Notes: generated by a model not told the origin, from the sequence alone. A DNA stretch of 64,000 nucleotides from an uncultured Gemmatimonadota bacterium (GCA_951812955.1 OX638340.1:3200001-3264000); one strand, 5' to 3'; shown: positions 18,416 through 63,608, counted from the first letter of the stretch. A program made the numbers and translations.

Positions 18416-18461
18416 AGCCTGAATCCGGATGACATACAATGGGAAACAATGTGCTCGTTAC

Positions 18462-18509
18462 GATGCTCGTAGCGCCCGGGTATGCGATGCTCGTAGCGCC
18501 CGGGTATGC
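18462..18509. repeat. Perfect 24-bp tandem direct repeat (x2, with a degenerate third copy upstream) in the divergent map/aldolase intergenic region
   Basis: gatgctcgtagcgcccgggtatgc occurs twice back-to-back, preceded by tgctcgttac. Confidence 0.8.
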
Positions 18510-26552: not shown

Positions 26553-27533
26553 ATGACCCTGGAGATGCGCATCGGCCTCGGGCAGTTCAACGTGCTCACC
26601 GACGAGAAACTGGCCTACATCAAGCAACTGGGCGCCGACGATTTCCTCATGAATACGCCGAAGCTGCCCGGCGATGAGCGCTGGGAACTGACGGACCTGG
26701 TCGACCTGAAACGGCGGGCGGATGACGCCGAGTTGCGGCTCATGGCGCTGGAAAACGTGCCGGTTACATTCTACGACAGGGCCATGCTGGGCTTGCCGGG
26801 CCGCGACAGCCAGATCGAGAACATGAAGTACACCATCCGGAACATGGGCCGGGCGGGCATTCCCATCCTGGGGTATCACTGGATGCCCAGCGCCGTGTGG
26901 CGCACCCCGGATCCCGCCGTACTCCGCGGCGGGGCAACGGCCACACGCTTCGATTTCGAGGCGCATAGGGACGCGGAACTCACCCATGGCCGCGTTTTCA
27001 CGGCCGACGAGATGTGGGAGAACTACGTATACTACATGTCGAGGATCCTGCCGGTTGCCGAGGAAAGTAACGTCAAGCTCGCCGTGCATCCGGACGACCC
27101 GCCCGTACCCATGCTGGGCGGCGTGGCCCGGATCTTCAGCAGCTTCGAGGGGTTCAAGCGGGCCATGGACGCCTTTGACAGCCCGTACCATGGCCTCGAT
27201 TTCTGCATGGGCTGCTGGTCGGAGATGGGCGGCCATGACTACGTGTTAAAGGCCGTTCGGCACTTCGGCGGCCAGGGCAAAATCATCTACGTCCATTTCC
27301 GTGACGTGCAGGGAAACGTCCCCTGTTTCAACGAGTGCTTCATCAACGAGGGCAACGTCGACCCCTACGAGGTCATGAAAACCCTGAAAGACGTCGGTTT
27401 CACTGGGTTTATGATCACCGACCACGTCCCGGACTTCGTGGATGATACCGACTGGAATCACCGGGGGCGCGCCTACGCCATCGGGTACATGACGGCCATG
27501 TTGGAAATGGTCAACAAGTTGCGGCCGGCCTAG
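26553..27533 (+). CDS. uxuA: D-mannonate dehydratase (UxuA-like, xylose-isomerase-like TIM barrel)
   Basis: 326 aa, about 2 nt after the parC-like stop. MRIGLGQFNVLTDEKLAYIKQLGADDF... resembles the UxuA N-terminus in my reading; length and composition fit. Family assignment is from memory, not a search. Confidence 0.65.
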   Translation: MTLEMRIGLGQFNVLTDEKLAYIKQLGADDFLMNTPKLPGDERWELTDLVDLKRRADDAELRLMALENVPVTFYDRAMLGLPGRDSQIENMKYTIRNMGRAGIPILGYHWMPSAVWRTPDPAVLRGGATATRFDFEAHRDAELTHGRVFTADEMWENYVYYMSRILPVAEESNVKLAVHPDDPPVPMLGGVARIFSSFEGFKRAMDAFDSPYHGLDFCMGCWSEMGGHDYVLKAVRHFGGQGKIIYVHFRDVQGNVPCFNECFINEGNVDPYEVMKTLKDVGFTGFMITDHVPDFVDDTDWNHRGRAYAIGYMTAMLEMVNKLRPA

Positions 27534-30223
27534 AGTGAAAACCAGTAGTTGAATTTCAGCAGGAAGATGTTCGACGGATAGGTGTCGAACAGGTCGTTCA
27601 GATCCTGCCCGGCCGAAAACCCGCCTGTGCCGCCCGAGCGGCTGCGCTGCTGCTGCCACACGAGAAACAGGGTCGAGCCCGGCGTATATTCCCAACGCAA
27701 GACCAGGTTGGAACGGAACTGGCGGAAATTGAAGTCGGGATCGTCGAAGGAGTAGTCCGTCTGCCCGTCCTGGTTTTCGTCCACGCGATAAACCTCGTCC
27801 GAATCGTCGTATGCCAGCTGGTCGTTCGAAAACACGTCGAACCGGTCGCTGAATCGGGAGGACCGCGTGTCCGTGATACGCTTGAACCGGGTGTAGCGGC
27901 CGGCCGATACGAAAGGCTGGCCGTAGTACTGGATGGACATGTTGTTGGTGATGCTGTAGTTGAGCCGGATCCCGATCCCCAGCGTCTTCTGGTCGACGCG
28001 ACCCAGCAGGTAGCGACTGTCATCCCGGAACGATTCGTTGGACACGTACTGCAACTCGTTCCAGTTGGTATTGAAAAACGGATTGATGCGGATGTTCATG
28101 GCGTTGCTCGGCCGGTACCGCATGGATAGATACGTCCAACTCGAGCGTCCCGCGTCATCGCGGCGCCGGTTGTAGCCGCCGCCAATGCCGAAACTGACGG
28201 GCTTGCGTCCATCGGTGTCGACATCGAGGTTGAACTCCACGTATCCCGGTGTCTTCACCGACGGGCCGCCGCGCAGGGCGGTGGTGGACAAACCCTCGAA
28301 TTCCGAGTTCATGTTCATCCACACCCACCAGTAATTGCTGAACTGGCCGCCCCCGTTGATGTTGCCGCCCAGGAATTTACGTTCCCTGCCGAAGTTGAAC
28401 CCCTGCCACTGGTTCATGAATACGTTGAACTGGCGGAAGATCCGATTCGGTTTTTCCGACCGGTAACCAAACCAACTGGTCTGCATGAAGACGTCGGCCT
28501 GGCGCAGGAAGCCCACGTCGTTAAGCTCGAGACCTGGCGAGCGCCAGGTTCCGGAGATCCCCATGTTCCACGGGCTGTTTCCCGATCGGCCTATGCCGAA
28601 GCTCCCGCCATGGCCGCTCATGGCGGTCAGCGTGGAATCCAGCGCCACGTAGGAAGCGTCGGGACGCTGGTAGTACCGCGCCGAATTGCGCTGCACGCGG
28701 ATAAGCGCTTCCGGTTCGCCCCGGATGTGGCTGAACGACATGCTCGCGTTGAGCCAGTAGGTCCGGTCGCTCCACTGGTGGCGGAAATCGATCCCGCCCG
28801 TGTAGGCCGCCCGGTTGAGGAAATCGAAGTGGGCCTTGTTGTTGTTCCGGTTGGTCGCCGTGAGCATTGTGCCCAGCGCCGTCTCCCCGTCGTTGAAGTC
28901 CTGCTGAATGCGCGCGACCAGGTAGTTGGTCAGCGGTTCCACGGATTCCTCGCTCCGCGCGCCATCCGTGTCTATTCTGGCGGTGGCTTCCCCGGTAACC
29001 GCTTCCACGATGCCGAGGGACAGGCCGCCCGGTGTCTTCCCGGTGATCTTCGCGGCGGCGAGTATGGGCGTATTCCGGGGCATGTCCATGGACTGGCCGT
29101 CCGAGAGGTCCGGATTCCGCTGGGGGGACCGGCCGATTCGCCGTGAGTAGAACAACTGGTCGTTCCGGAAAGGGCCGCCGCCGCCAACGCCGAACTCGGT
29201 GATGTTCTTTCCTTCGACGAACAGGGGCCGGCGTTCTTCGAAAAACAACTCGAAGGCCGACAGGTTGACCCTCGAAGGGTCCGCCTCGACCTGGCCGAAG
29301 TCAGGGTTCACGGCCAGATCCATGGTCAGGTTGCCGGCCAGCCCGATCTTGCCGTCCAGTCCGATGCGCCCGTCGGCGCTCTGGCCGTCGCGGAAGGGAT
29401 TTCGCGCCTCGGCCTGGAACCGGTTGAGGTCACCCACCACATAGGGCAGGATCTCAATCCGGTGGGAAGACTCGATGCCTTCCAGTCCGCGCAGTTCACC
29501 GAAAAGGCTGACCCAGCCCGGCGAATTGCGGTGGATGTGCTGCCAGCCCGAACGCTCCTCGCGGCGGTAGAGCCTTCTCTGGACCTGGAGGCCCCATACC
29601 TGTCCCTCCTCGCCGGAGAACCTCAACTGGCTCAGGGGTATGCGCATCTCGGCGAGCCATCCCTCTTCGTCGATGGTGGACGCGCCGTACCATACGGGAT
29701 CCCAGCTCGCGTCCCAGTCGTCTCCGTCGTTCGATATGGCTTCGTCGCCCCGGCCTCCGGAGGCGGTCAGCGTAAAGGAAAAGGCCGTGCGCTTGTCGTG
29801 ATAGCTGTCGAAATGAATCTCGACCCAGTCGTTGTCCCAGTCGTCCCGCCGAGTTACGCGGCTGGTGATCCGGTCCGGTTCGGTATCGAAGGCACGGATC
29901 AGCACGTAGAGGTTGTGATCGTCGAAGAGGATTTTGAAAGCCGTCTGCTGCGTGGGTTCCGCGCCGTCATCGGGATCAAGCTGGGTAAATTCGCCGGACC
30001 ATTTGACGTCGTCCCAGGCTTGATCATCTCCCCTACCATCGATATCGGGAGGCAGGGACGCGATATGCCGCGTGTTGTACACCCGTCTTTCCGGTGCCGG
30101 TTGATTTGCTTCGGATTCCACCGGCCCCACGATGGCCAGGGTGATCAGGATCGTCATCCACCGTTGCAGGTTGTTCAGAAACAATGTATTGCCTCCAGCC
30201 AGTTTCAAGTCATTGCCGACCAT
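27530..30223 (-). CDS. DUF5916/CBM9-like outer-membrane protein (carbohydrate-binding family 9-like N-domain plus large beta-barrel)
   Basis: Signal peptide (...MTILITLAIVGPVESEA). The acidic, Trp-rich N-domain DIDGRGDDQAWDDVKW resembles the CBM9/DOMON-like start of DUF5916 proteins. C-terminus ...NIFLLKFNYWFSL has an aromatic terminal pattern typical of OM beta-barrels. Alternative start at 30157. Confidence 0.55.
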   Translation of the reverse strand: MVGNDLKLAGGNTLFLNNLQRWMTILITLAIVGPVESEANQPAPERRVYNTRHIASLPPDIDGRGDDQAWDDVKWSGEFTQLDPDDGAEPTQQTAFKILFDDHNLYVLIRAFDTEPDRITSRVTRRDDWDNDWVEIHFDSYHDKRTAFSFTLTASGGRGDEAISNDGDDWDASWDPVWYGASTIDEEGWLAEMRIPLSQLRFSGEEGQVWGLQVQRRLYRREERSGWQHIHRNSPGWVSLFGELRGLEGIESSHRIEILPYVVGDLNRFQAEARNPFRDGQSADGRIGLDGKIGLAGNLTMDLAVNPDFGQVEADPSRVNLSAFELFFEERRPLFVEGKNITEFGVGGGGPFRNDQLFYSRRIGRSPQRNPDLSDGQSMDMPRNTPILAAAKITGKTPGGLSLGIVEAVTGEATARIDTDGARSEESVEPLTNYLVARIQQDFNDGETALGTMLTATNRNNNKAHFDFLNRAAYTGGIDFRHQWSDRTYWLNASMSFSHIRGEPEALIRVQRNSARYYQRPDASYVALDSTLTAMSGHGGSFGIGRSGNSPWNMGISGTWRSPGLELNDVGFLRQADVFMQTSWFGYRSEKPNRIFRQFNVFMNQWQGFNFGRERKFLGGNINGGGQFSNYWWVWMNMNSEFEGLSTTALRGGPSVKTPGYVEFNLDVDTDGRKPVSFGIGGGYNRRRDDAGRSSWTYLSMRYRPSNAMNIRINPFFNTNWNELQYVSNESFRDDSRYLLGRVDQKTLGIGIRLNYSITNNMSIQYYGQPFVSAGRYTRFKRITDTRSSRFSDRFDVFSNDQLAYDDSDEVYRVDENQDGQTDYSFDDPDFNFRQFRSNLVLRWEYTPGSTLFLVWQQQRSRSGGTGGFSAGQDLNDLFDTYPSNIFLLKFNYWFSL

Positions 30224-30616
30224 CGATTCCCGCGCTGCAACTATGACAAGGGAACGGTCGAAAAGGTTGCGTTTTTTCGACCTGCGCGGTCTCACGATGC
30301 GACGTCGGCGCCGAGACGTACTGCATACACTCCGGCGGGCCTTCTTATTCACATAACCCTTCCGGTTTTCCCCGGAGCGGATGCACTTGTCCTTTCTACC
30401 CGGCCGGCGACGGGCATACGGTGCGGTACGGTGCGGAATATGCTTTTGCCTGACGGAATCACGACTGCATATTACAGGACAGGTGGTACAGGTCCCGCCT
30501 ATCGCGCAGTGACGATCGCGATACGGTATTCCGCACGACCCGTTCCGCCAGGCGCGGCGTCCGCGCGCCCGTAACCCGTGCAGTTCCCCACACTCCGCAG
30601 TACGTGGAGATCCCAC

Positions 30617-37055: not shown

Positions 37056-39890
37056 ATGCGCACTACGAGCGTGATATTGCTCTTGCTGTTCAGTGTATGG
37101 CCGGCGGCTGCCCAGGAGACCGGCAGCCTGGCCGGCAGGATCGCAGCCGATGACGGAATGGCGTTGTTCGGCGCCAATATCGTGATCGGGGGTGACGCGA
37201 TCGATGAATTGCGCGGAACGACGAGCGACGGCGAGGGGGCCTTTCGCGTCGACGGCCTGCCGCCTGGCGTATATGACGTGACGGCCTCCTTTCTTGGCTA
37301 TGAATCGGTCACCATGGCCGCCGTGGCGGTCCTGGGTGGCGAAACCACGCGGCTTGACATCGGCCTTGTGGCTACGACGCTGATCGGGCAGCAGGTCGTG
37401 GTTTCCGCGTCGCGTAAACAGGAGAAGCTGCTCGACGCGCCGGCTTCCGTATCCGTAGTCGAGCTGGACGAGATCATGAACCGGCCGTCGTTGTCGGTAA
37501 CCGACTATATCAAGGACCTGGGTGGCGTGGACCAGGCCAAGGTCGGCGTTTCCCAGAGCTCCACTGTGATCCGGGGATTCAACCGCACGTTTACCGGGTC
37601 CCTCCTGCAGATGGTGGACAACCGGATCGCGCGGATCGCCTCGCTCCGGCTCAACATGGGCAGTTCCATCCCCATCACTAGCGAGGACATCCAGCGCATC
37701 GAGGTCGTCCGCGGACCGGGTTCCGCCCTTTACGGTCCCAACAGCGCCAACGGGGTCATGCACATCGTGACCCGATCGCCCATCGGTTCGGAAGGCAACT
37801 CGTTGGCCGTGTACGGCGGGGAGCGCAGTCTGCGCAAGGCGACCTTCCGGCACGCCAGCAGTGTCGACGAAAAGATAGGGTTCAAGGTTTCGGGCGAGTA
37901 TTCGAAGGCCCGGGAATGGGAATACAATGACCCCGCGGAGGTCAGTCCCCGGGACTACGACAACGAACGCCTGCTCGGGGAGATACGAATCGACCTTCGT
38001 CCCACGGACGACCTGTCCATCATCGGCTCGGCGGGGTATTCCCGGATCAAAGCCATCCAGATGACCGGGCAGGGCGCGGCGCAGGCCGTCGACTGGTCCA
38101 CCCGGTTCTTCCAGGCGCGAACGCAGTACAAGGGCTGGTTCGCCCAGATCTTTCTCAACATGAACGACGCGGGCGAGACCAAGCTTCTCCGGACCAACCA
38201 GCCGATCGTGGATACCTCGAGATTGACCGTGGTGCAGCTTCAGCATAACTTCGGGCTGGGCGACCGGCAGCAGTTCACCTATGGCGCGGACATGTTGCTG
38301 ACCCGGCCCAACACTGGAAACACGACCCACGGTCAATACGAAGACCGCGACAATCTGGACGAGTATGGCCTTTACATTCAAAGCGAAACGAACCTGAACG
38401 ACCAGGTCAGCCTGATGCTGGCCGGCCGGCTGGACGAGCACAGCAAGAACGAAAACCCGGTGTTCTCACCCCGCGCGGCCCTGGTCTACAAACCTTCGAC
38501 GGAGAGCACGCTTCGGCTTACCTACAACCGGGCGTTCGGCACACCCAGTTCGGTGCATTACTTTCTCGATCTGATAGCGAGTTCCGACCCATACGGCCTG
38601 GGCATGAATTTCGGCGCCCTGGGTCTGGGATCGGACCGCACCATCGATTTGCGCACGCAGGGCGTCAACTCGCAGTTCACGTTTCGTCGGGGCGACAACG
38701 GCCTGCCCATGTACCGTTCGCCCTTCGCTCCCGTGGCGGGGCTGCCCGTGGACACCTATCTCCCCATGAACGATCCGGCCAGCACCAATCTCCTCTGGGG
38801 CGTGGCGCGCGGCGCAGTGCTTGCGCAGCTAACGCCGCAGCTCCAGGCGCTGGCGGTCCCCCTCATCACGCAGTATTTGATTTCGCTTGGGATTCCGGCT
38901 CAGAACGCGGGGCAATTGGCATCCCAGCAGGCGACGCAACTGGCCGCCGCGTTCCCGGGCGTCATCCCGTCCGCGCTTCCTGGGCTCACGAATTCACTGG
39001 GCATACTGGACACAGGTACAGGTACCTTCAATCCGGTCGATCCCGCATCGGTAAGGAACATCGACCCGATAAGACCGTCCATTACCGAGACGTTTGAAGT
39101 GGGATACAAAGGCGTCATCGACAACAAGCTGGTACTGACCGCGGATTTCTACCGGAACAAGATACACGATTTCATCAGCTCGATTCATATCGTGACGCCC
39201 AATGTCTTCCTCGATCCCGGACCGCTGAGCACGGCCCTGGGAGCGGGAATCGCGCAGCATCTGGCCGCGCCCGAGAACGCGCAATTGGCTGGTGCGCTCA
39301 ACGCGCTCGATGACCCGGCCGCGGGCGTAGGCGGCAACGGCAATGGAACGCCGGTGGACGAACTGACCGGTATATTCGTGAGTACTGCGGCCTCGATACC
39401 GTTTGGCACGGCGACCCCGGAAGAGGCTTCGGACCCCAACGCCGTGATGCTGACTTACCGCAACTTCGGAGAAGTTACGTACTACGGCACGGACATCGGG
39501 TTCTCCTATTATCCCAGCGACGTGTGGAACCTGTCGGGCAGTTATTCCTATATCAACACGAACCTGTTCGAGAACGTGGACGGCATCGACGATATACCAT
39601 TGAACGCGCCGCGTCACAAGCTATCCATGGCGATTGGGTTCAAGCCGTCGGGCACGCCGCTCACCCTCGGCGCCCGCGTGCGGTACCGCGGGCAATTCGA
39701 GATGGCCGATGGCGTGTATGTGGGGGACGTCGAGTCTCATTCCGTCGTAGACTTGAACGCCTCCTATGCGTTTTCGAATCTCACCCTGAGCGTAGAGGCC
39801 GGGAATCTGTTCAATAGCGAGTACCAGGCGTTTGTCGGAGCGCCAATGATCGGGCGCATGGTCATGGCGGGTCTTGCGGTGCGTTTCTGA
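37056..39890 (+). CDS. TonB-dependent outer-membrane receptor with N-terminal carboxypeptidase-regulatory-like domain
   Basis: Signal peptide, then AQETGSLAGRI...GVYDVTASFLGYES (CarbopepD_reg-like). Plug region DAPASVSVVE..., VIRGFN, EVVRGPGSALYG. Terminal ...AGLAVRF. Confidence 0.8.
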   Translation: MRTTSVILLLLFSVWPAAAQETGSLAGRIAADDGMALFGANIVIGGDAIDELRGTTSDGEGAFRVDGLPPGVYDVTASFLGYESVTMAAVAVLGGETTRLDIGLVATTLIGQQVVVSASRKQEKLLDAPASVSVVELDEIMNRPSLSVTDYIKDLGGVDQAKVGVSQSSTVIRGFNRTFTGSLLQMVDNRIARIASLRLNMGSSIPITSEDIQRIEVVRGPGSALYGPNSANGVMHIVTRSPIGSEGNSLAVYGGERSLRKATFRHASSVDEKIGFKVSGEYSKAREWEYNDPAEVSPRDYDNERLLGEIRIDLRPTDDLSIIGSAGYSRIKAIQMTGQGAAQAVDWSTRFFQARTQYKGWFAQIFLNMNDAGETKLLRTNQPIVDTSRLTVVQLQHNFGLGDRQQFTYGADMLLTRPNTGNTTHGQYEDRDNLDEYGLYIQSETNLNDQVSLMLAGRLDEHSKNENPVFSPRAALVYKPSTESTLRLTYNRAFGTPSSVHYFLDLIASSDPYGLGMNFGALGLGSDRTIDLRTQGVNSQFTFRRGDNGLPMYRSPFAPVAGLPVDTYLPMNDPASTNLLWGVARGAVLAQLTPQLQALAVPLITQYLISLGIPAQNAGQLASQQATQLAAAFPGVIPSALPGLTNSLGILDTGTGTFNPVDPASVRNIDPIRPSITETFEVGYKGVIDNKLVLTADFYRNKIHDFISSIHIVTPNVFLDPGPLSTALGAGIAQHLAAPENAQLAGALNALDDPAAGVGGNGNGTPVDELTGIFVSTAASIPFGTATPEEASDPNAVMLTYRNFGEVTYYGTDIGFSYYPSDVWNLSGSYSYINTNLFENVDGIDDIPLNAPRHKLSMAIGFKPSGTPLTLGARVRYRGQFEMADGVYVGDVESHSVVDLNASYAFSNLTLSVEAGNLFNSEYQAFVGAPMIGRMVMAGLAVRF

Positions 39891-40059: not shown

Positions 40060-42834
40060 ATGCGACTGGCAGGCATTTTGCTCGCCTTGATCATGACGGC
40101 GATCCCGGCGGCGGCACAGGAGACGGGCAGTCTGGGCGGCAGGATCGTATCGGACAGCGGAGAGTTTCTCTTCGGAGCCACCGTCGTGGTCAAAAGTCCC
40201 GCGATCGATGGGTTGCGGGGCTCGACGAGCGATGACAGGGGAATGTACCGCGTAGACGGACTTCCCGCCGGGGTGTACGAGGTCTCCGTTACTTTCCTGG
40301 GTTACGAGTCGTTTACCACGACCGGGGTCATGGTTCGCGGCGGTGCGCGCACGGCAAGGGATTTCGTGCTGGCCGCTTCGGTGCTCGTGGGCCAGGAGGT
40401 CGTGGTCTCGGCCTCCCGGAAGCGTGAAAAGGCCCTGGACGCTCCGGCGTCCGTCGAAGTGATCGAAATGCGGGACATCAAGGATTCCCAGGCGCTGGCC
40501 GTCAATGAACACATCAAGGACCTCAGCGGCGTCGATTACGCGAAGACGGGCGTCGTACAGGCCAGCACCGTGATCCGGGGATTCAACAAGGCGATATCGG
40601 GTCTCCTGCTTACCATGGTGGACAACCGGATCGCGCGGATCCCGTCGTTGCGTATCAACTCCTTTCAGGTCATTCCCATCACCAGCGAGGACATCGAACG
40701 CATCGAGATCGTCCGGGGCCCGGGTTCGGCGCTTTACGGTCCCAACAGCTCAAACGGCGTGATGCACATCATTTCGCGCTCCCCATTCGGGTCGGAGGGT
40801 AACTTCGTATCCCTTTCCGGGGGAGAACGCAGCCTGCGCAAGGCCTCCTTCCGCCATGCCAGCAGCGTCAATGACAAGATCGGACTCAAGATCTCCGGCA
40901 AGTACCTGAAGGCCCGGGACTGGGAATTCCACGATCCGGAGGAAATCGTGCCGCGGGATTTCGGTATCCAAGGCCAGTACGGAGAGATCAGGCTCGACTT
41001 GCGGCCTACGGAAGAACTGACGTTCATCACATCGGCCGGGTACTCCAAAAGCAGCAGCATCCAGATGACGGGACAGGGTTCGGCACAGGGCAAAGACTGG
41101 CTGTATACACATCTCCAGGGCCGCATGCAGTACAAGGGCTGGTTCGGCCAGTTCTTCTACAACAAGAGCGATGCGGGAGAAACCAGGCTGCTTCGCACCG
41201 ATGAAAGCATCGTGGACAAGTCGTCGCTGACGGTCATGCAGTTGCAGCACACCAGGGACATCGGCCAGCGCCAGCAGTTCGTCTACGGGGTGGACCTGCT
41301 GCTCACCCGTCCCCGGACCGAGGGGACCATTCACGGCGACAACGAGGACGATGACGAGACCAATGAATTCGGGGTTTACCTGCAGAGCGAGACCAGGTTT
41401 ACCGACCAGGTGAGCCTGATGCTGGCCGGCCGCCTGGACGAGCACAACAGGCTCGATAACGTTGTATTCTCGCCCAGGGCGGCGCTGGTACTCAAGCCCA
41501 ATCCGGAAAGCACCTTCAGATTCACCTATAACCGGGCGTTCAACACGCCGACGGTGACGTCGTTCTCGCTGGACTTGAAGGCGGTCAACGATGCCTTTGG
41601 TTTCGGCGCGCTTTTCGGCGACCAGGGCCTGGGTCCCGACAACACCATCGACATCCGGTCCTACGGCGCGGCCAACGCCTTCACATTCCGCCGGGACGAA
41701 GCCGGCCTCCCCATGTACCGGTCTCCTTTCGCCACGGTTTCCGGGCTATCGAGGGATACCTTCCTGCGTCTCGATGATCCGGTCGCGACCAACATGCTGT
41801 GGGGTGCGGCAAGGGAACTGTTCGTCACTGAGATGGTCAAGCAACTGGGTGAGGACAGCGGGGGCATCGTAACGCCGGAACTGGCCGCGGAGTTCACCAA
41901 CGTGATCCCTGTGCAGCTCTCGGGACTGAGGAACAGCCTTGGGCTGCTCAGTCCTGAAACGGAAGCCTTTATTCCTCTGGACGCATCATCCGTCCAGGAC
42001 TTAGACAAGATACGCCCGACCATCACGCAGACCTTTGAGGTCGGATACAAGGGCGTGATCAAGAACAAACTGGTTCTGGCAGCCGATTTCTACCGCACGC
42101 AGATGACCGACTATACCCTGCCTCTATGGATTTTCACGCCTTCCGTGTTTCTCGACGCCGAGTCTGTCCGAACCGCACTGAGACAGGGTATCGACGACTA
42201 TCTGGCCGCCCCCGAGAACGCGCTGCTTGCCAGTCTGATCGTTCTGCTCGACCAACCGGGTCTCGGCGGCAACGGGAACGGCGACCACGGGGATGAAATC
42301 AACGGATACATCGATCAGATCGCGGACGGCGCCGCGATGATCCCCTTCGGAACCATCACGCCGGAGCAGGTCTCCGATCCCACGGCGGTGGCGTTGACTT
42401 ACCGGAATTTCGGCGACGTCACGGTCTACGGCGCCGACATGGGGTTTTCCTATTTCCCCAACAGGTCCTGGAACATCACGGGCAGCTACTCCTTCATCAA
42501 CCAGAACCTGTTCGAGAACGTGGAAAGCCTCGGCGACGTTCCCCTCAACGCGCCGAAGCACAAGTTCAGCGGAGGCGTTACGTTCCGGCCGGCCAAATGG
42601 CCCCTGACTCTGGGTGGCAAGCTCAGTTACCGGGGCCCCTTCCCCATGCTGGACGGCGTGTACGGAGGGCCGATCGACTCCTATACGCTATTCGATGTAA
42701 ACGCCGCGTACGAGTTCGCGCCCCTTACCATCAGCGTGGAAGCCAGCAACCTTTTAAACAACCAATACCGTTCCTTCATCGGCGCGCCTGAAATCGGCCG
42801 GTTGCTTTCCGCCGGCGTGGCCGTACGTTTCTGA
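40060..42834 (+). CDS. TonB-dependent outer-membrane receptor, tandem paralogue of 37056..39890
   Basis: Same architecture and collinear sequence (AQETGSLGGRI...GVYEVSVTFLGYES...DAPASVEVIE...VIRGFN...AGVAVRF). Confidence 0.8.
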   Translation: MRLAGILLALIMTAIPAAAQETGSLGGRIVSDSGEFLFGATVVVKSPAIDGLRGSTSDDRGMYRVDGLPAGVYEVSVTFLGYESFTTTGVMVRGGARTARDFVLAASVLVGQEVVVSASRKREKALDAPASVEVIEMRDIKDSQALAVNEHIKDLSGVDYAKTGVVQASTVIRGFNKAISGLLLTMVDNRIARIPSLRINSFQVIPITSEDIERIEIVRGPGSALYGPNSSNGVMHIISRSPFGSEGNFVSLSGGERSLRKASFRHASSVNDKIGLKISGKYLKARDWEFHDPEEIVPRDFGIQGQYGEIRLDLRPTEELTFITSAGYSKSSSIQMTGQGSAQGKDWLYTHLQGRMQYKGWFGQFFYNKSDAGETRLLRTDESIVDKSSLTVMQLQHTRDIGQRQQFVYGVDLLLTRPRTEGTIHGDNEDDDETNEFGVYLQSETRFTDQVSLMLAGRLDEHNRLDNVVFSPRAALVLKPNPESTFRFTYNRAFNTPTVTSFSLDLKAVNDAFGFGALFGDQGLGPDNTIDIRSYGAANAFTFRRDEAGLPMYRSPFATVSGLSRDTFLRLDDPVATNMLWGAARELFVTEMVKQLGEDSGGIVTPELAAEFTNVIPVQLSGLRNSLGLLSPETEAFIPLDASSVQDLDKIRPTITQTFEVGYKGVIKNKLVLAADFYRTQMTDYTLPLWIFTPSVFLDAESVRTALRQGIDDYLAAPENALLASLIVLLDQPGLGGNGNGDHGDEINGYIDQIADGAAMIPFGTITPEQVSDPTAVALTYRNFGDVTVYGADMGFSYFPNRSWNITGSYSFINQNLFENVESLGDVPLNAPKHKFSGGVTFRPAKWPLTLGGKLSYRGPFPMLDGVYGGPIDSYTLFDVNAAYEFAPLTISVEASNLLNNQYRSFIGAPEIGRLLSAGVAVRF

Positions 42835-42977
42835 AAGATCCCCACCGAGCGGGTTGTTAACCTTTTGAACACGGACAGCCGTTTATGACGGCGGACGCTT
42901 CCGGCGCCCGCTCTTTGCCTTTCCGCGCGGCGCGGGTACCTGCCTCGTCCATAAAATCGAAACTTTGTCCGGGGGTT

Positions 42978-43019
42978 TTTCGTGCAATCGAGTATGGACT
43001 TTCGTGCAATCGAGTATGG
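42978..43019. repeat. Tandem 22-bp direct repeat (tttcgtgcaatcgagtatgg x2), putative operator, upstream of the promoter of the large outer-membrane gene
   Basis: Two identical 20-nt cores separated by 2 nt. Confidence 0.7.
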
Positions 43020-43080
43020 GCTTGTTCCGGGCGGGCATGTTCCGGTGCGCCGAACGGTTCCCTGAAGGTCCAATATTGGC

Positions 43081-43109
43081 TTGACACCAAGTGCGGCTTC
43101 CCGTAAGAT
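43081..43109 (+). promoter_or_regulatory. Near-consensus sigma70-type promoter (TTGACA-17 nt-TAAGAT), followed by RBS AAGGAG and the ATG at 43135
   Basis: ttgacaccaagtgcggcttcccgtaagat. Confidence 0.45.
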
Positions 43110-43134
43110 GTGTCCATCTTCAAGGAGACTGAAA

Positions 43135-46100
43135 ATGCCACATAGGTTGCGGTTTATTCTGGCGTTCCTGTGCCTGCTGGCCATGCCTGCGGCAGCGTTC
43201 GCCCAGGGGGATTACTTCGGGCGGAACAAGGTCCAATACCGCGACTTCAAGTGGGAAATCATCTCCACGCCCCACTTCGAAATCTACTTCTACCAGGGAG
43301 AGGAAGAGGCGGCCTACGATGCCGCCCGGATGGCGGAACGGTCCTATAACCGTCTGAGCCGCATACTGCAGCACAGGTTTAGCGACAAGATCCCAATCAT
43401 CCTGTACGCCTCCCATACCGATTTCCAGCAGACCAACGTCCTGCCGGGCTTCATCAGCGAGGGCACCGGCGGCGTGACGGAATTCAACAAGAACCGCATA
43501 CTGCTGCCCTTCACGGGATCGTACGCGGAACTGGAGCACGTACTCACCCACGAACTCGTTCACGCCTTCCAGGGTGACGCGATCTACGGCGCCGGTCCCG
43601 GCGTCTCCATCCTGAATCCCATGGCCTTCATCGCCCCGCTGTGGTTCATGGAGGGCATGGCGGAGTACCTGTCCCTTGGCCGAATCGACGCCTATACCCA
43701 CATGTGGCTGCGCGACGCGGCGCTGCAGGGATACCTCCCAGCGTCCATCCCCGCCATGGACTACAGTTTCGGCGTCTACCGGTTCGGCCAGGCGCTCTTC
43801 GCCTACATCGGCGAACGGTACGGAGATCGCAAGATCGGCGAGATTCTCCGCAAGACCGGCCGCCTGCGAAACGTGAACGAAGCCTTCCGTTCGTCCATCG
43901 GTAAGGATATCGAGAAGCTTTCCGACGAATGGAACGAGCACGTGCGCCAGACCTACCTGCCACAGATCAAGGATTACGAAAAGCCGCAGGCCTTTGCCCG
44001 GCAACTGACCGACGTCAGGGAATCCCGGGCGGGTATACATCTCGCCCCGGCGATTTCGCCGCGTGGAGACAAGCTGGTTTTCATCTCAAATAAAAGCCTG
44101 TACAACGATATCTACCTGGCCTCCGCCATCAACGGCGAGGTGATCTCCAAGCTGGTCGAGGGCGAACGCTCGGCCGATTTCGAGTCCCTCCGGTTTTTCT
44201 CCACGTCCATTTCCTGGTCGCCCGATGAGCAGTACATCGCCTTTCCGGCCAAGGTGGGGGCGCGGGACGCCTTGTATGTCATGGACGTGAGGAAGAGGAA
44301 GGTCGTCCGGCGCATCAAGGTCGATCTCGACGGCGCCACGTCGCCGAGTTGGTCGCCCGACGGCAGCCAGCTGGTCTTCGTCGGCCTGCAGGGCGGACAG
44401 TCGGACCTGTACGTGATAGACGCCACGGGAGGGAACCTGCGCGCCCTGACCCAGGACCGGTACACCGATCGTGATCCCGTGTGGTCGCCCGACGGCAGCC
44501 AGATCGCTTTTTCCACGGACCGGGGCGACGTGACCAATTTCCGGACGCTCACTTTCGGTTATCAGCAATTGGCGGTATACGACCTGGCCACGGGGGAAGT
44601 CGATAAGATCCCCGACCAGATCGGAAAAAGCATCTCGCCTCAATGGTCCGCCGATGGCGAGAAGATCGCCTTCATATCGGACCGCACCGGTATTTCCAAT
44701 ATTTTTATTCGGGACATGAAATCAGGCGAGACCTACCAGATTACCAACATCCTCACCGGGGTGACCAACGTTACGGCCGCGGGTCCCGCCATAAGCTGGG
44801 CGCAGAAGGCTGACCGGCTGGTTTTTTCTTCCCTGTCCTGGGGCGGATTCGACCTGTTCTCCATCAGCGATCCGGTGTCGCTGATGAAAGAGCCCTACGA
44901 TCACGCAAAATCGGCGACGCCAGGCGCCTCTCCCGATGCAGCGCAACTGGCCCCTCCGCTCAGGACCGAACCTTCGGAAGAAACCGCCGACGGCGAGGAC
45001 GGCGATGGTACATCGCTGGACCCGGAAGTGGCAATCGACGGTATCGAGTCCGCGTCACCGGACTCAGACGCCGACTCCGACACGAGTCAGTCGATTTCAG
45101 CGCAGGACGACGAGAAGGTCACCGAGGAGAAGGTTACCGAGGAGAAGGATACCGAGGAGAAGGTCACCGAGGGGAAGGTTACCACGATCCAGACCGTACT
45201 TACGGAATCTCCCGATACGACGTCCACCACGAATGAAACCACACCGCGGGAGGAGCCGGAGGAGACAGGAAGTTCCGATCTTCTGCAGCAGCCGGAGTTT
45301 CCTTTCGGTCCCGTCACCAGAGGAATCGGGCCGGGTGGCGAATTGCCGGATACTACCGCATGGATCGACGGCACCTTCACGAAGAAGAAATACTCCCCCG
45401 ACTTCGGCCTCGACTATATCGGCGGGAATGCGGGTTACGCCACGAACGTCGGTCTGGTGGGAAGTTCCCTTCTTTCCTTCAGCGATATCCTGAATAACCA
45501 CAAGATTCTGGTGGGAGCCAACGTATTCGGTTCCCTGACGGACGCGAACCTGCTGCTTCAGTACACCAACCTGACTCGGCGCGTCAACTGGAGCGTGGCG
45601 GCTTTTCAGTACAGCTATGATCTGTTCTACAACTACCAGAGCCCCATCCTTACCCAGGTTACGACCCAGATCAATCGCGGCGTGCATCTCTTCGTAAGCC
45701 GGCCTTTCAGCAAGTTCAGCCGCTTGGAACTGGGTATTCAGGGGGTGCACAGGTCCCGTGAGCTGGTGGATGTGAGTTTCAATTACTTCGGCATCCGCCG
45801 GAACCGGCGCGGGAGCCTGGGCAGCGTGAATTTCGTGCAGCCCACCGCCGCCCTGGTCACCGATCACACGCTCTATGGCGTTACCGGACCGATCGCCGGC
45901 GCCCGGGGCCGCATCGAAATAACCCCGACTTTCGGCGAACTCCAGTACACGCGCGCCTTCATCGATTACCGAACGTACATCAACGTAATGCAGCGGTACG
46001 CCTTTGCCTTTCGCCTGTTCGGACTGGCCAGCGAGGGGCGCGACCAGGAACTCTTTCCCTTTGGCGGGCCCTATGATTTTCGTGGCGCCAACTACTGGTC

Positions 46101-46602
46101 CGTCTGGGGGAGCAAGGTCGCGATGGTCAACGCGGAGTTCCGTTTTCCTTTAGTCGATGTGCTGGCCATGGGGTGGCCGCTGCCGCTGGTCTTCCAACAG
46201 ATCCGGGGCTCGTTGTTCATCGACGCAGGCAGTGCTTGGGACCAGAACACAAGCGCCGTGCAGGCCAATCAGTATGCGGGCTATCCCAATGTGGGAGACT
46301 TCGTCGACGGGTCGCTGATGCGGGACAACGGGCTGGGGCCCGGCATGATGGAAGAACTGTCGGGCAGTCCGGTCGCCGTGGCCTACGGCATCGGTGCGCG
46401 GGCGCGTGTGGGTTTCCTGATACTGAAGTTTGATATAGCCCGTCAGTTCGACCTCGGTAAACGGCCCTCCTGGTACAACAACGAGAACCTTCCCACTGTG
46501 CCCAGGGGACTGGAGTCCGAGTTTCCAGGCACGCGTTCGTACCGTCTGAGGAATGCGCTGAACGATACCCAGTTCTTCTTCACGATCGGCGCCGATTTCT
46601 AG
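43135..46602 (+). CDS. Large outer-membrane fusion protein: N-terminal HExxH (zincin/peptidase-MA-like) region, PD40/TolB-like beta-propeller repeats, acidic (EEKVT)n linker, C-terminal Omp85/BamA-like beta-barrel
   Basis: Signal peptide MPHRLRFILAFLCLLAMPAAAFAQ. HELVHAF zincin motif. Repeated SPDGSQLVF / SPDGSQIAF / SADGEKIAF PD40 blades. Tandem repeat EEKVTEEKDTEEKVTEGKV. C-terminal GSLFIDAGSAWD...FFFTIGADF resembles BamA-family barrel ends. Confidence 0.55.
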   Translation: MPHRLRFILAFLCLLAMPAAAFAQGDYFGRNKVQYRDFKWEIISTPHFEIYFYQGEEEAAYDAARMAERSYNRLSRILQHRFSDKIPIILYASHTDFQQTNVLPGFISEGTGGVTEFNKNRILLPFTGSYAELEHVLTHELVHAFQGDAIYGAGPGVSILNPMAFIAPLWFMEGMAEYLSLGRIDAYTHMWLRDAALQGYLPASIPAMDYSFGVYRFGQALFAYIGERYGDRKIGEILRKTGRLRNVNEAFRSSIGKDIEKLSDEWNEHVRQTYLPQIKDYEKPQAFARQLTDVRESRAGIHLAPAISPRGDKLVFISNKSLYNDIYLASAINGEVISKLVEGERSADFESLRFFSTSISWSPDEQYIAFPAKVGARDALYVMDVRKRKVVRRIKVDLDGATSPSWSPDGSQLVFVGLQGGQSDLYVIDATGGNLRALTQDRYTDRDPVWSPDGSQIAFSTDRGDVTNFRTLTFGYQQLAVYDLATGEVDKIPDQIGKSISPQWSADGEKIAFISDRTGISNIFIRDMKSGETYQITNILTGVTNVTAAGPAISWAQKADRLVFSSLSWGGFDLFSISDPVSLMKEPYDHAKSATPGASPDAAQLAPPLRTEPSEETADGEDGDGTSLDPEVAIDGIESASPDSDADSDTSQSISAQDDEKVTEEKVTEEKDTEEKVTEGKVTTIQTVLTESPDTTSTTNETTPREEPEETGSSDLLQQPEFPFGPVTRGIGPGGELPDTTAWIDGTFTKKKYSPDFGLDYIGGNAGYATNVGLVGSSLLSFSDILNNHKILVGANVFGSLTDANLLLQYTNLTRRVNWSVAAFQYSYDLFYNYQSPILTQVTTQINRGVHLFVSRPFSKFSRLELGIQGVHRSRELVDVSFNYFGIRRNRRGSLGSVNFVQPTAALVTDHTLYGVTGPIAGARGRIEITPTFGELQYTRAFIDYRTYINVMQRYAFAFRLFGLASEGRDQELFPFGGPYDFRGANYWSVWGSKVAMVNAEFRFPLVDVLAMGWPLPLVFQQIRGSLFIDAGSAWDQNTSAVQANQYAGYPNVGDFVDGSLMRDNGLGPGMMEELSGSPVAVAYGIGARARVGFLILKFDIARQFDLGKRPSWYNNENLPTVPRGLESEFPGTRSYRLRNALNDTQFFFTIGADF

Positions 46603-46684
46603 GAAACTCCTCCAGCATCGGCCGCGGTCGGTCCATCCTTCGTTGAATCACCATTGCCCGAACGCGGAGATACGGCAGGTATAC

Positions 46685-53074: not shown

Positions 53075-53728
53075 ATGAAACGATGGAGCAACACGGCTTC
53101 GATGCTGGCGCTCTGTGTTCTGGTCGCCGCACCCGTGTGGATGGGTGCGTGCTGCGCCGTATCCCGGGGACCTTCCGCGGAGGAACTGGCCGCCATGGAA
53201 GCCGAGCGGCAGCGGGCCGTAGAGGATTCCCTCAGGGCGGTGCGCGCTGAAGAAGAAGCCCGGCTCGCGGCTGAAGAAGAGGCCCGGCGGATGGCAGAAG
53301 AGGAAGCTCGGCTCGCCGCGGAGGAAGAAGCCCGGCTCGCTGCCGAAGAGGAAGCCCGGCTCGCTGCCGAGGCGGCAGCCCTGCACGCAGAGAGGATGTC
53401 TCTGTCGACCATCTACTTCAATTACGACCGTTCCAATGTCCGGGAAGACCAGCGACCGGCTCTGGATGAGAACGCCCAAAAGTTGCGGGAGTACCAGCCC
53501 GAAGACATGGTGGTTGTCGAGGGCCACGCTGATGAGCGGGGTACGATCGAATACAACCTGGCGCTGGGCGAACGGCGCGCCCAGGCGGTCAAGACCTATC
53601 TCGTGGATGCGGGCGTGGCGGACAGCCGCATCGAAACCGTCAGTTTCGGTGAAGAGAAACCGGCGGTCATGGGCAGCGACGAAAGCGCCTGGTCGCAGAA
53701 CCGCCGAGTGGAGCTTATGCGGAAGTAA
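53075..53728 (+). CDS. pal: Peptidoglycan-associated lipoprotein Pal (OmpA-family) with a repetitive EEARLAAEE linker
   Basis: Lipobox (WMGAC). OmpA-like domain motifs IYFNYDRSNVRED, VEGHADERGT.EYNLALGERRA, NRRVEL. Five or more copies of EEARLAAEE-type units in the linker. Confidence 0.85.
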   Translation: MKRWSNTASMLALCVLVAAPVWMGACCAVSRGPSAEELAAMEAERQRAVEDSLRAVRAEEEARLAAEEEARRMAEEEARLAAEEEARLAAEEEARLAAEAAALHAERMSLSTIYFNYDRSNVREDQRPALDENAQKLREYQPEDMVVVEGHADERGTIEYNLALGERRAQAVKTYLVDAGVADSRIETVSFGEEKPAVMGSDESAWSQNRRVELMRK

Positions 53729-58526: not shown

Positions 58527-58627
58527 TACGGTGACGCCCCTGACGGATTATATGGTGAAGGCCCTACCTGGTTGTGGTTGTACGGTGGCGCCCTTGCCTG
58601 GGTTGTGCGGTGACGCCATTGCCCCGG
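58527..58627. promoter_or_regulatory. Three imperfect about 21-bp direct repeats (tacggtgacgcccctgacgg / tacggtggcgcccttgcctgg / tgcggtgacgccattgccccgg) in the upstream region of larB
   Basis: Seen directly in the sequence. Spacing is 54 and 25 nt. Located 70-170 nt upstream of the larB start codon on the opposite strand. Confidence 0.45.
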
Positions 58628-62019: not shown

Positions 62020-62138
62020 TGAACGAGTGCGTCAAGAACGAAGGTGTGTCATGAACGAAGGCGAACCATGAACGAAGACGTGGCATGAACGAGTGCAAAC
62101 CATGAACGTAGGCGAACCATGAACATAGGCGAACCATG
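62020..62138. repeat. Tandem array of 17-bp repeats (consensus catgaacgaaggcgaac; five clean copies plus one or two degenerate 5' copies). The final copy supplies the ATG start codon of the downstream oxidoreductase.
   Basis: Copies at 62050, 62067, 62084, 62101 and 62118, then catgac... at 62135 where ATG 62136 is the gene start. 17 is not a multiple of 3. Confidence 0.85.
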
Positions 62139-63377
62139 ACAGAGAAACCGATCCGCGTAGGCGTAGTGGGCGTGGGCCGCGGGAAGAGTTTCGCGCAGAC
62201 CGCGTCCGGCGCCGTGGGCATGCAGCTCGTCGCGCTGTGCGACACCTGGGAGGAGCGGTTGCAGCAGTTGGCCGGGGAACTCTCCGTCGCCGCGTACACC
62301 GATTACGACGCATTCCTCACCCACGACATGGACGCCGTCGTCCTGGCCAACTACTTCCACCAACACGCGCCGTTCGCCATCAAGGCTCTGCGGGCGGGGC
62401 GGCACGTCATGAGCGAGACGGCCTCCAACGCCACCCTGGCCGAGGGGGTGGCCCTGTGCCGGACCGTTGAGGAGACCGGCCGGATCTACATGTTGGCCGA
62501 GAACTATCCGTACACGGTCTTCAATCAGGAGATGCACCGGTTGTACGGCGAGGGGGAGATCGGCGAGGTAACCTATGCCGAGGGGGAGTACAACCACCCC
62601 ATGGCCCGGGACGACAGCCTCCGCCTGTCACCGGGATTCGACCACTGGCGGGCGTGGATTCCCTCCACCTATTACTGCACCCACGCCCTGGCTCCGCTGG
62701 TATACATCACCAATACGCGGCCGGTTGGCGTGAACGCCCTTGCCATCGCGCGGCCCGAGCGCACCCTCACGCTCAGGAGAGGAGACCCGGGGTCTGTCAT
62801 CCTCTGCCGCATGGACAATGGCGCGGTGTTTCGGATCTTCGGACTCAGTATGCCGGGCCACAGCAACTGGTACCGCGTGCACGGCGAACGGGGCGCCATG
62901 GAGATCACGCGGGGACCGGGATACTTCGGACCGGGAGAGGTGCGGGTGTGGCATGAGCCGTGGCACCTGGAACCCGGCCAGGAAGCGGAACGGGTATACC
63001 GGCCGGACTGGCCCGAACACGGCGATCTCGCCCGCGAGGCTGGGCACGGGGGTGGCGACTTCTGGACCAGTTTCCATTTTGCCCGGGCCATCCGTTCGGG
63101 CGAACAGCCCTTCCTGGACGTCTACCGCGGCGTAGCCATGTCGTCGGTGGGCATCCTGGCCTGGAAAAGCGCGCTGGAAGACGGGCGCCCCTTCGAAGTG
63201 CCCGATTTCAGGGACGAGGACGACCGTAAATCCTGGGAGAACGACCACTGGTCGCCCTGGCCCGGACATGCCGGACCGGGACAGCCGCCTCCCAGCATAC
63301 TCGGCCGTCGCGACCCGGCTCCGGAACATATCCCATACGCCCGTCGCATATGGAAGGACATGGGTTACGAGGGGTAA
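62136..63377 (+). CDS. Gfo/Idh/MocA-family NAD(P)-dependent oxidoreductase
   Basis: IRVGVVGVGRGKSF (N-terminal Rossmann GxGxxG), then ...FIEKP-like ANYFHQHA..., and a long C-terminal alpha/beta domain. Confidence 0.8.
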   Translation: MTEKPIRVGVVGVGRGKSFAQTASGAVGMQLVALCDTWEERLQQLAGELSVAAYTDYDAFLTHDMDAVVLANYFHQHAPFAIKALRAGRHVMSETASNATLAEGVALCRTVEETGRIYMLAENYPYTVFNQEMHRLYGEGEIGEVTYAEGEYNHPMARDDSLRLSPGFDHWRAWIPSTYYCTHALAPLVYITNTRPVGVNALAIARPERTLTLRRGDPGSVILCRMDNGAVFRIFGLSMPGHSNWYRVHGERGAMEITRGPGYFGPGEVRVWHEPWHLEPGQEAERVYRPDWPEHGDLAREAGHGGGDFWTSFHFARAIRSGEQPFLDVYRGVAMSSVGILAWKSALEDGRPFEVPDFRDEDDRKSWENDHWSPWPGHAGPGQPPPSILGRRDPAPEHIPYARRIWKDMGYEG

Positions 63378-63534: not shown

Positions 63535-63565
63535 GGGGATTGCGTGTGTGCGCAATCCCCTTTTT
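63535..63565 (+). terminator. Rho-independent terminator downstream of tRNA-Glu
   Basis: ggggattgcg-tgtgtg-cgcaatcccc hairpin followed by ttttt. Confidence 0.6.
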
Positions 63566-63608
63566 GCTTTCATGCCGTCCGGTTTGCTTTCTGTGCCGTC
63601 CGGGGGCG

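Follow-up and report, generated by a model that had tools for sequence, protein, structure and literature searches.

The Omp85 superfamily includes a 'WD40-Omp85' or 'WD40-like' subfamily with a TolB-like propeller, which was defined by Heinz and Lithgow in 2014 (Front Microbiol 5:370; PMC4104836). In that study, Table S2 gives PF01103 together with multiple PF07676 for the WD40-like group, and Table S3 gives the best TolB hit and the 'best aminopeptidase hit' (e.g. 1z5h, 4fgm) of each member; a POTRA hit is not listed for the members shown, such as H1XQ58, D0MEQ5, D0MCT8 and B3QRX6. POTRA-less Omp85 subfamilies are recognised there, and the WD40-like subfamily is regarded as reminiscent of a BamA-BamB fusion, with a proposed role related to outer-membrane-protein assembly. 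A 2024 paper ascribed 'divergent WD40 and peptidase domains' to the WD40-like group (PMC11358297), and Hanson et al. (2024) stated that these subfamilies 'have not been well characterized'. The conserved, uncharacterised Omp85 subfamilies, including the WD40-like one, have been called 'intriguing targets' (PMC11116518). Here we describe a WD40-like Omp85 gene found in a 64,000-nucleotide stretch of DNA (hereafter the window) from an uncultured Gemmatimonadota bacterium (GCA_951812955.1, OX638340.1:3200001-3264000).

Domain architecture of the WD40-like Omp85 protein

The protein consists of a signal peptide, a gluzincin domain, a six-bladed PD40 propeller, a disordered acidic linker and a 16-strand Omp85 barrel, in this order (Table 1). 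It belongs to the WD40-like Omp85 subfamily, having an Omp85 barrel after a PD40/TolB-like propeller and an aminopeptidase-like domain, without POTRA. The fusion of zincin, PD40 propeller and Omp85 barrel had been proposed in a first-pass annotation of the DNA, and it was borne out by Pfam, AlphaFold2 and Foldseek. The architecture was implied there to be unusual; however, it had been catalogued in 2014 as 'WD40-like Omp85', with these three parts in this order (PMC4104836). The three-part architecture is already known, and the window protein is a further member with nothing different in kind. It differs from the 2014 description in being a Latescibacterota-like copy, of a phylum not named in the parts of that paper considered here, and in the strain-specific EEKVT repeat of its linker.

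In the ORF listing of the window the frame (43081..46602, + strand) opens at TTG. The ATG at 43135, 7 nt 3' of AAGGAG, gives a protein of 1155 residues, and the aligned upstream regions share this MP start in all orthologues. The first-pass annotation had placed a 1156-residue frame within 42960-46602; the gene stands at 43135-46602, whereas 1156 is its number of codons with the stop included. The signal peptide claimed there is also present on reading the sequence, and it is predicted to be of the Sec type. Conservation was read from an alignment of 110 full-length homologues, down to about 45% identity, which also served as AlphaFold2 input; the model of the whole protein had a mean pLDDT of 79.5 and a pTM of 0.81. 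The mature N-terminus (family consensus QYFGxNKVQY) is nearly invariant in this alignment. By analogy with the N-terminus of TolB, or with the lid of PlpD binding a partner strand, it could act as a docking or strand-augmentation peptide. In the window protein, residues 24-33 (QGDYFGRNKV, 43204-43233), with QY next, directly follow the predicted cleavage site, and the model confidence is low there.

Table 1. Coordinates of the WD40-like Omp85 gene, its domains and its upstream elements, counted from the first letter of the window.
Feature	Position	Strand	Basis and remarks
Block TCGAAAC	42957..42963	+	Kept in 8/9 upstream regions; L005 reads CTGCAAC
22-bp repeat, copy 1 (TTTCGTGCAATCGAGTATGGAC), extra copy	42978..42999	+	Tandem Repeats Finder; only in the window's species-level clade
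22-bp repeat, copy 2, core CGTGCAATC at 43003-43011	43000..43021	+	Counterpart of the single element of relatives
10-bp perfect palindrome CCAATATTGG	43070..43079	.	One base 5' of the -35 hexamer
Predicted sigma-70-type promoter, TTGACA-17 nt-TAAGAT	43081..43109	+	Promoter scan and conservation in orthologues
Ribosome-binding site AAGGAG, 7 nt 5' of ATG	43122..43127	+	Invariant in orthologues
Coding sequence, WD40-like Omp85 protein	43135..46602	+	1155 aa plus stop
Predicted signal peptide MPHRLRFILAFLCLLAMPAAAFA, then Q; no lipobox	43135..43203	+	Sequence reading; putative cleavage site
Gluzincin metallopeptidase domain, residues about 28-295	43216..44019	+	HELVH 43549-43563; probable third zinc ligand E173 (WFMEGMAEY) 43651-43653
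Six-bladed PD40 / TolB-like β-propeller, residues about 300-585	44032..44889	+	Pfam; TolB matches by sequence and Foldseek
Disordered acidic, Ser/Thr- and Pro-rich linker, 151 aa, residues 588-738	44896..45348	+	pLDDT, composition
15-bp tandem repeat, 5.1 copies, (EEKVT)n inside the linker	45108..45183	+	Tandem Repeats Finder
16-strand Omp85 β-barrel, residues about 745-1155	45367..46599	+	FRGA (L6) 46078-46089; FIDAG (β-13) 46216-46230; C-terminal Phe

The C-terminal region was matched by PF01103 over residues 802-1106 with 35.4 bits (cutoff 24). In the model it forms sixteen long β-strands (residues 758-1153), in agreement with the BamA/TamA-type barrel expected from the first reading of the sequence. 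The long connections at residues 969-993, 1036-1082 and 1105-1144 take the positions of L6, L7 and L8, with short turns between, and the modelled topology is the canonical Omp85 one with strand 1 starting in the periplasm. Foldseek against the PDB matched BamA barrels at about 1e-8 (TM-score 0.56-0.59 versus barrel-only entries), and the family profile also matched the sequence of Fusobacterium nucleatum BamA (9ccg, 1.1e-6). The lid-lock motifs are F982-R983-G984-A985 in L6 and F1028-I-D1030-A-G1032 on strand 13. R983 and D1030 are each kept in 109 of the 110 homologues, G984 in 104, F1028 in 103 and the terminal Phe in 102; the residue that follows the G of the L6 motif can be A, V, Y or L in the family. 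A DxLGNHN-like turn follows strand 2.

The barrel and the lid-lock motifs place the protein in the Omp85 superfamily. POTRA is missing, with no PF07244 match at E <= 1 in Pfam and none in the model, and the protein falls outside the classical Omp85 definition. It resembles BamA and TamA in the 16-strand barrel, the (V/F)RG of L6, the FxDxG of β-13, the C-terminal aromatic residue and the structural matches; whereas its N-terminal part is an enzyme and a propeller on a disordered linker in place of POTRA. Identity as BamA itself was rejected, since the NCBIfam BamA equivalog scored 25.9 against a cutoff of 297 and POTRA is missing.

The propeller was matched by PD40 (2.5e-22) and also by DPPIV_N, Tricorn_N and Tricorn_2nd in Pfam. 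TolB is its best match, by sequence (E 6e-19) as well as by structure (2.5e-11, Foldseek against the PDB). The strands of the model make up six four-stranded blades, one more than the minimum of five counted at first reading. Identity as TolB was rejected: no TolB_N was found in the protein by Pfam, and the TolB equivalog TIGR02800 scored 141.4 bits against a cutoff of 343, with the propeller positions alone matching. Moreover, a separate, genuine TolB is encoded 4 kb downstream.

The N-terminal domain is a mixed α/β domain in the model (residues about 30-295), and HELVH spans residues 139-143. None of H139, E140, H143, E173 and E177 varies among the 110 homologues. The HExxH motif with a downstream Glu ligand in a thermolysin-like fold is that of the gluzincins (clan MA(E)), so that the zincin motif noticed in the first-pass annotation does sit in a zincin fold. 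The N-domain profile aligned with the M9 collagenase 7wss (E 4e-6) across HExxH and the WxEGxAEY helix, within the catalytic subdomain only. In the N-domain comparison, the figures were 16.7 for the M30 lugdulysin, 16.2 for the M9 Grimontia collagenase, 12-14.5 for M1 aminopeptidases and tricorn factor F3, and 9.7 for thermolysin. Sequence identity to M9 collagenases, M30 hyicolysin/lugdulysin and Peptidase_MA_2 is just 12-17%. Weaker Pfam matches in the same protein include BSP, M9 and M61, and many homologues carry precomputed PF13485 matches flagged as weak.

The exopeptidase motif GxMEN of M1 was not found in the protein upstream of HExxH, where the corresponding conserved segment is EGTGGVTE, and identity as an M1 aminopeptidase was rejected on this ground. 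The lack of GxMEN favours an endopeptidase, and the domain is nearer to the M9/M30 endopeptidases than to the M1 aminopeptidases. It has no collagenase activator domain and lies outside family M9; the activator and recruitment domains of the M9 collagenases are missing, and the peptidase is fused here to a propeller and a barrel. Because of the M9 profile match, the invariant catalytic residues and the missing GxMEN, the N-terminal domain looks like a catalytically active M9/M30-like endopeptidase.

The linker contains 25% Asp and Glu. Residues 598-734 are predicted to be disordered (pLDDT below 50 over 620-734) and run straight into strand 1. The acidic (EEKVT)n linker encoded by 15-bp DNA repeats, as described in the first-pass annotation, was confirmed by Tandem Repeats Finder. 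In the family the linker varies from 55 to 179 residues, and its internal repeats differ between relatives. For example, PETASAMDDTLSA is repeated in P0004 and P0006, and GDAEDTSE-like units occur in P0012. EEKVT, which is expanded to an array in the window, stands only once in the 95% relative P0002. On its sequence the linker is a hypervariable, repeat-prone leash, of which the 15-bp repeat is one case since the relatives carry differing repeats. The window contains another repeat-encoded linker of an envelope protein, comparable to EEKVT: a Pal-like OmpA-family gene (53075-53728) has a 24-bp repeat of about 5 copies (53249-53388) in its N-terminal linker region.

Proposed function and alternative readings

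The function that we favour, with about an even chance of being right, is that of a zinc endopeptidase which faces the periplasm, is anchored in the outer membrane and cuts envelope polypeptides. The gene would be transcribed from its own conserved sigma-70-type promoter, and the product would be exported by Sec, freed of its signal peptide and inserted into the outer membrane by its C-terminal 16-strand barrel. The N-terminal module would remain in the periplasm, tied to the barrel by the flexible acidic leash of about 150 residues. This module would be an M9/M30-like zinc endopeptidase directly joined to the six-bladed TolB-like propeller. Its likely job would be the proteolysis of periplasmic or envelope polypeptides, as turnover or quality control of envelope proteins; the propeller might bind or gate the substrates, and the barrel would be the membrane anchor.

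BepA is a periplasmic zinc peptidase at the site of outer-membrane assembly. The likeness of the window protein to BepA (M48 and TPR, at BAM) is a functional analogy only, with no homology to M48. Propellers of the tricorn and prolyl-oligopeptidase type admit unfolded substrates; the propeller-gated peptidases themselves are likewise only functional analogues, and their catalytic types differ from the zinc peptidase considered here.

We infer that the leash and the peptidase-propeller are periplasmic, since Omp85 barrels have the start of strand 1 in the periplasm and the long L6-L8 outside. The N-terminal domains of the Omp85 proteins tested so far are all periplasmic. Among them is that of PlpD, an enzyme which for years was taken to be secreted but is now shown to be periplasmic and to act on envelope components (PMC11116518). 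PlpD (PL-Omp85, formerly 'type Vd') has an enzyme domain N-terminal to an Omp85 barrel and is the best experimental precedent; whereas it has one POTRA, a short linker and a phospholipase as its enzyme, the window protein is POTRA-less and carries a metallopeptidase and a propeller on a long disordered linker. The surface exposure suggested in the first-pass annotation found no support here: in the Omp85 pattern of strands and loops, the N-terminus of strand 1 and hence the linker face the periplasm, where the PlpD enzyme also lies. The wide spread of the family and its housekeeping neighbours in Gemmatimonadota also fit a core envelope function better than niche nutrient acquisition.

Several points weigh against the periplasmic endopeptidase. 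Peptidase_MA_2 (PF13485, residues 73-270) reached 28.1 bits, under its Pfam cutoff of 32.4. PF01752 (M9) was also sub-threshold, with 20.1 bits against 26. The orientation follows from topology rules and analogy, and a long linker of low complexity would also be in keeping with display of the module on the surface. The two TonB-dependent receptor genes that precede the gene in the Latescibacterota clade would fit a surface peptidase feeding importers. In the literature, no functional study or experiment on any WD40-like Omp85 member was found.

A self-contained quality control of outer-membrane proteins seems rather unlikely. Strand 1 of the barrel would here recognise, like BamA, the β-signal of stalled or misassembled outer-membrane proteins, and the tethered propeller-peptidase would degrade them, which would make the protein a single-polypeptide analogue of BepA or DegP at the BAM complex. 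BepA and DegP act at BAM in Proteobacteria, and we judge it unlikely that a one-polypeptide device does their job in Latescibacterota, Gemmatimonadota, Eisenbacteria and related phyla. In addition to its matches with BamA structures, the barrel keeps the BamA-type signatures (the RG of L6, the FxDxG of β-13, the DxLGNHN-like turn and the C-terminal Phe); however, PlpD has a barrel that is not known as an insertase and yet retains the conserved Omp85 motifs, and the barrel of the window protein could be a mere anchor. The invariant peptidase motifs and the likeness of the propeller to Tricorn_N/Tricorn_2nd-type propellers, which channel substrates, are consistent with such a device, but a lateral gate, substrate binding and the co-occurrence of BAM genes would all have to be assumed. 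The broad distribution of the family, whose spread looks vertical, and the assembly-related role proposed by Heinz and Lithgow (PMC4104836) also point in this direction.

That the protein is a surface-displayed protease, as suggested in the first-pass annotation, appears improbable. In this type V-like arrangement the barrel would export the peptidase-propeller with the help of BAM, the linker would pass through the pore, and the exposed peptidase would digest extracellular proteins and so supply peptides to the adjacent TonB-dependent receptors. The gene lies directly downstream of two same-strand receptor genes of the CarboxypepD_reg type in all close relatives; however, this adjacency is missing outside the close clade, and between the receptors and the gene lie 300 nt in which the gene has a conserved promoter to itself. 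M9 and M30, the nearest peptidase folds, are secreted endopeptidases. Export would mean that a folded, propeller-bearing module of about 62 kDa gets through a 16-strand barrel with the conserved L6 lid-lock inside its lumen. Surface proteins often have long linkers of Ser, Thr, Pro and acidic residues, but this one is predicted to be disordered and is 55-179 residues long in the family, with neither POTRA nor an autotransporter-like α-helical plug. Moreover, the 'type Vd' precedent of PlpD has been overturned (PMC11116518).

It is very doubtful that the protein is a non-catalytic, BamA-BamB-like scaffold or TolB-like adaptor with a structural zinc site, whose propeller and zincin-like domain would only bind partners (for example Pal, peptidoglycan or BAM lipoproteins) and so connect the outer membrane with the cell wall or Tol: the subfamily was likened to a BamA-BamB fusion in the 2014 study (PMC4104836), the propeller is closest to TolB and the gene lies upstream of Tol-Pal in this clade, but the general base E140, the two His ligands and E173 do not vary in any of the 110 sequences, as is typical of active enzymes and not of pseudo-peptidases, TolB_N is missing with a TolB equivalog score of 141 against 343, a genuine TolB is encoded downstream, and beyond the clade the gene is not kept next to Tol-Pal.

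Distribution, gene neighbourhood and upstream region

The family was found in at least 594 species genomes when GTDB was scanned with each species represented by a single genome. The 80 listed loci came from Latescibacterota (best match 87% identity), Eisenbacteria, Gemmatimonadota, Zixibacteria, Ignavibacteria and Bacteroidota. A filter-free search with the N-domain only gave 866 clusters (50% identity, E <= 1e-30), in which the domain is near the N-terminus and most proteins have 900-1200 residues. The short matches in the representative search look truncated or frameshifted, and a soluble, barrel-less paralogue of the N-terminal module was not evidenced there. A word-indexed search gave thousands of matches, of which the full-length ones came from metagenome-assembled genomes labelled Zixibacteria, Latescibacteria and Eisenbacteria. 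The names of the homologues are generic, such as 'BamA/TamA family outer membrane protein', 'PD40 domain-containing protein' and 'Tol biopolymer transport system component'.

Downstream of the gene are an FNR-like NAD_binding_1 protein, a zinc alcohol dehydrogenase (ADH), TolQ, TolR, a TolA-like TonB_2 protein, TolB, a YbgF-like TPR protein and Pal; upstream are the two CarboxypepD_reg-type TonB-dependent receptor (TBDR) genes. The order TBDR-TBDR-[gene]-FNR-like-ADH-TolQRAB-YbgF-Pal is shared by every relative above about 80% identity. The FNR-like and Tol-Pal neighbourhood pointed out in the first-pass annotation is real, whereas the Tol-Pal linkage exists only in the close Latescibacterota clade. 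The Tol-Pal order is absent in Eisenbacteria, Gemmatimonadota, Zixibacteria and Ignavibacteria, and the 'TolB' matches in those four phyla are the gene's own propeller or an unrelated PD40 protein. Clustering of the flanking ORFs gave no partner gene conserved across the phyla, and the synteny is clade-specific only. Because it is confined to this clade, the Tol-Pal adjacency is not evidence of a functional link. In Gemmatimonadota, reading of representative sequences suggests housekeeping neighbours (RsfS-like, ribosomal proteins L9 and S6, SMC).

The two receptor genes (37056-39890 and 40060-42834, + strand) are tandem paralogues with CarboxypepD_reg, plug and barrel, kept in all close relatives, and no SusD-like partner gene lies between or after them. 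From the stop codon to the FNR-like gene there are only 82 nt (46603-46684), and scanning them revealed no intrinsic terminator. The gene may share a transcript with the FNR-like and ADH genes, and perhaps even with tol-pal. Elsewhere in the window, a 1028-residue protein (27533-30616, - strand) with CBM9_1 and DUF5916 is probably a carbohydrate-binding outer-membrane or secreted protein.

The orthologous intergenic regions were aligned for relatives with 99, 98, 95, 91, 87, 85, 83, 83, 82 and 80% protein identity, and five conserved blocks stand out amid diverged flanks. The TTGACA-17-TAAGAT promoter and the AAGGAG site of the first-pass annotation both proved to be real. The extended -35 block is ATTGGCTTGACAC, of which CTTGACAC is invariant in nine lineages; the -10 block GTAAGATG is identical in 8/9, and L058 reads GTATGATG with one base changed. 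The leader and ribosome-binding-site block is CCATCnTCAAGGAG, with AAGGAG invariant. The promoter is supported far better by this conservation across orthologues than by the consensus scan, which alone was not significant (2 sites against 1.4 expected). An Rfam search of the upstream region gave nothing.

About 70-80 nt 5' of the -35 hexamer lies the core CGTG(C/A)AATC, which is kept in 8/9 lineages; L008 has one change and an inserted base. Being conserved amid diverged flanks, the single upstream element (core CGTGCAATC) is probably functional, and it is probably a regulator, protein-binding or UP-like site. In the window it belongs to a 22-bp repeat of 2.1 copies (42978-43023, Tandem Repeats Finder), and a 20-mer of the repeat has exactly two occurrences in the window but none in shuffled sequence. 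The duplication is present in the window, in L001 (99%) and in L118 (98%), whose second copy has a C-to-G change in the core; whereas L003 (95%) and seven more distant relatives, down to 80% identity, carry the unit once. The pair of identical 20-nt sites noted in the first-pass annotation is real, but a two-site operator, as the tight control suggested there would have it, is not a conserved feature because the duplication is confined to the window and the 98-99% relatives. Judged from the alignment, the tandem is a recent slippage duplication at the species level.

A regulon defined by further copies of the site, as had been envisaged, was not obtained. No more copies of the 20-mer were found in the 64-kb window, even with 3 mismatches, and the 9-nt core had one further match there, at chance level. 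A scan of metagenome contigs with TTCGTGCAATCNNNTATGG, a pattern too short for a database of that size, gave at least 120 matches, nearly all of them chance matches in unrelated low-GC contigs (median 44%, versus 61% for the window), and L118 was the sole orthologous locus. It remains unlikely that the two sites act as a tandem operator with tighter control by a regulator in this strain. The 22-bp spacing is about two helical turns and would put both copies on the same DNA face, the ancestral element is conserved, and the duplication persists in the three sampled genomes; however, neither the 95% relative nor any more distant one has it, L118 is already mutated in one core, and other copies in the window are lacking. 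At least four other intergenic regions with unrelated 17-25-bp tandem duplications argue for a general slippage process.

Those duplications lie at 18461-18509 (24 bp x2, 100% identical), 58576-58623 (25 bp x1.9), 62031-62139 (17/34 bp x3-5) and 63563-63603 (21 bp x2, just after tRNA-Glu), and slippage-type duplication seems common in the non-coding DNA of this genome. The 83% relative L058 (9830-10006) has its own, different small duplication ATGTGGACGCGCAAATGGACGCG just 3' of the CGTGCAATC core, so that the same upstream spot appears duplication-prone in more than one lineage. The palindrome CCAATATTGG is perfect in only some relatives, with ATTGG as its best conserved part, and neither it nor the extended -35 block is enriched elsewhere in the window. 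In the repeat family search, the palindrome resembled the 3' half of the 22-bp unit (TCGAGTATGG versus TCCAATATTGG), and it could be a second site for a factor binding that unit.

Meaning for the Omp85 family

The window itself adds little beyond another member to a family that spans several poorly studied phyla. The present analysis contributes the three-domain model, the strictly conserved catalytic site, the M9/M30-like assignment and the hypervariable leash; the Tol-Pal adjacency and the upstream tandem repeat were also shown to be lineage-specific. If the one-polypeptide quality-control device were true, a member of the Omp85 family would for the first time be assigned a proteolytic function. 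The side of the membrane on which the tethered peptidase acts and its substrates, once known, would extend the roles of the Omp85 scaffold beyond insertion and translocation.

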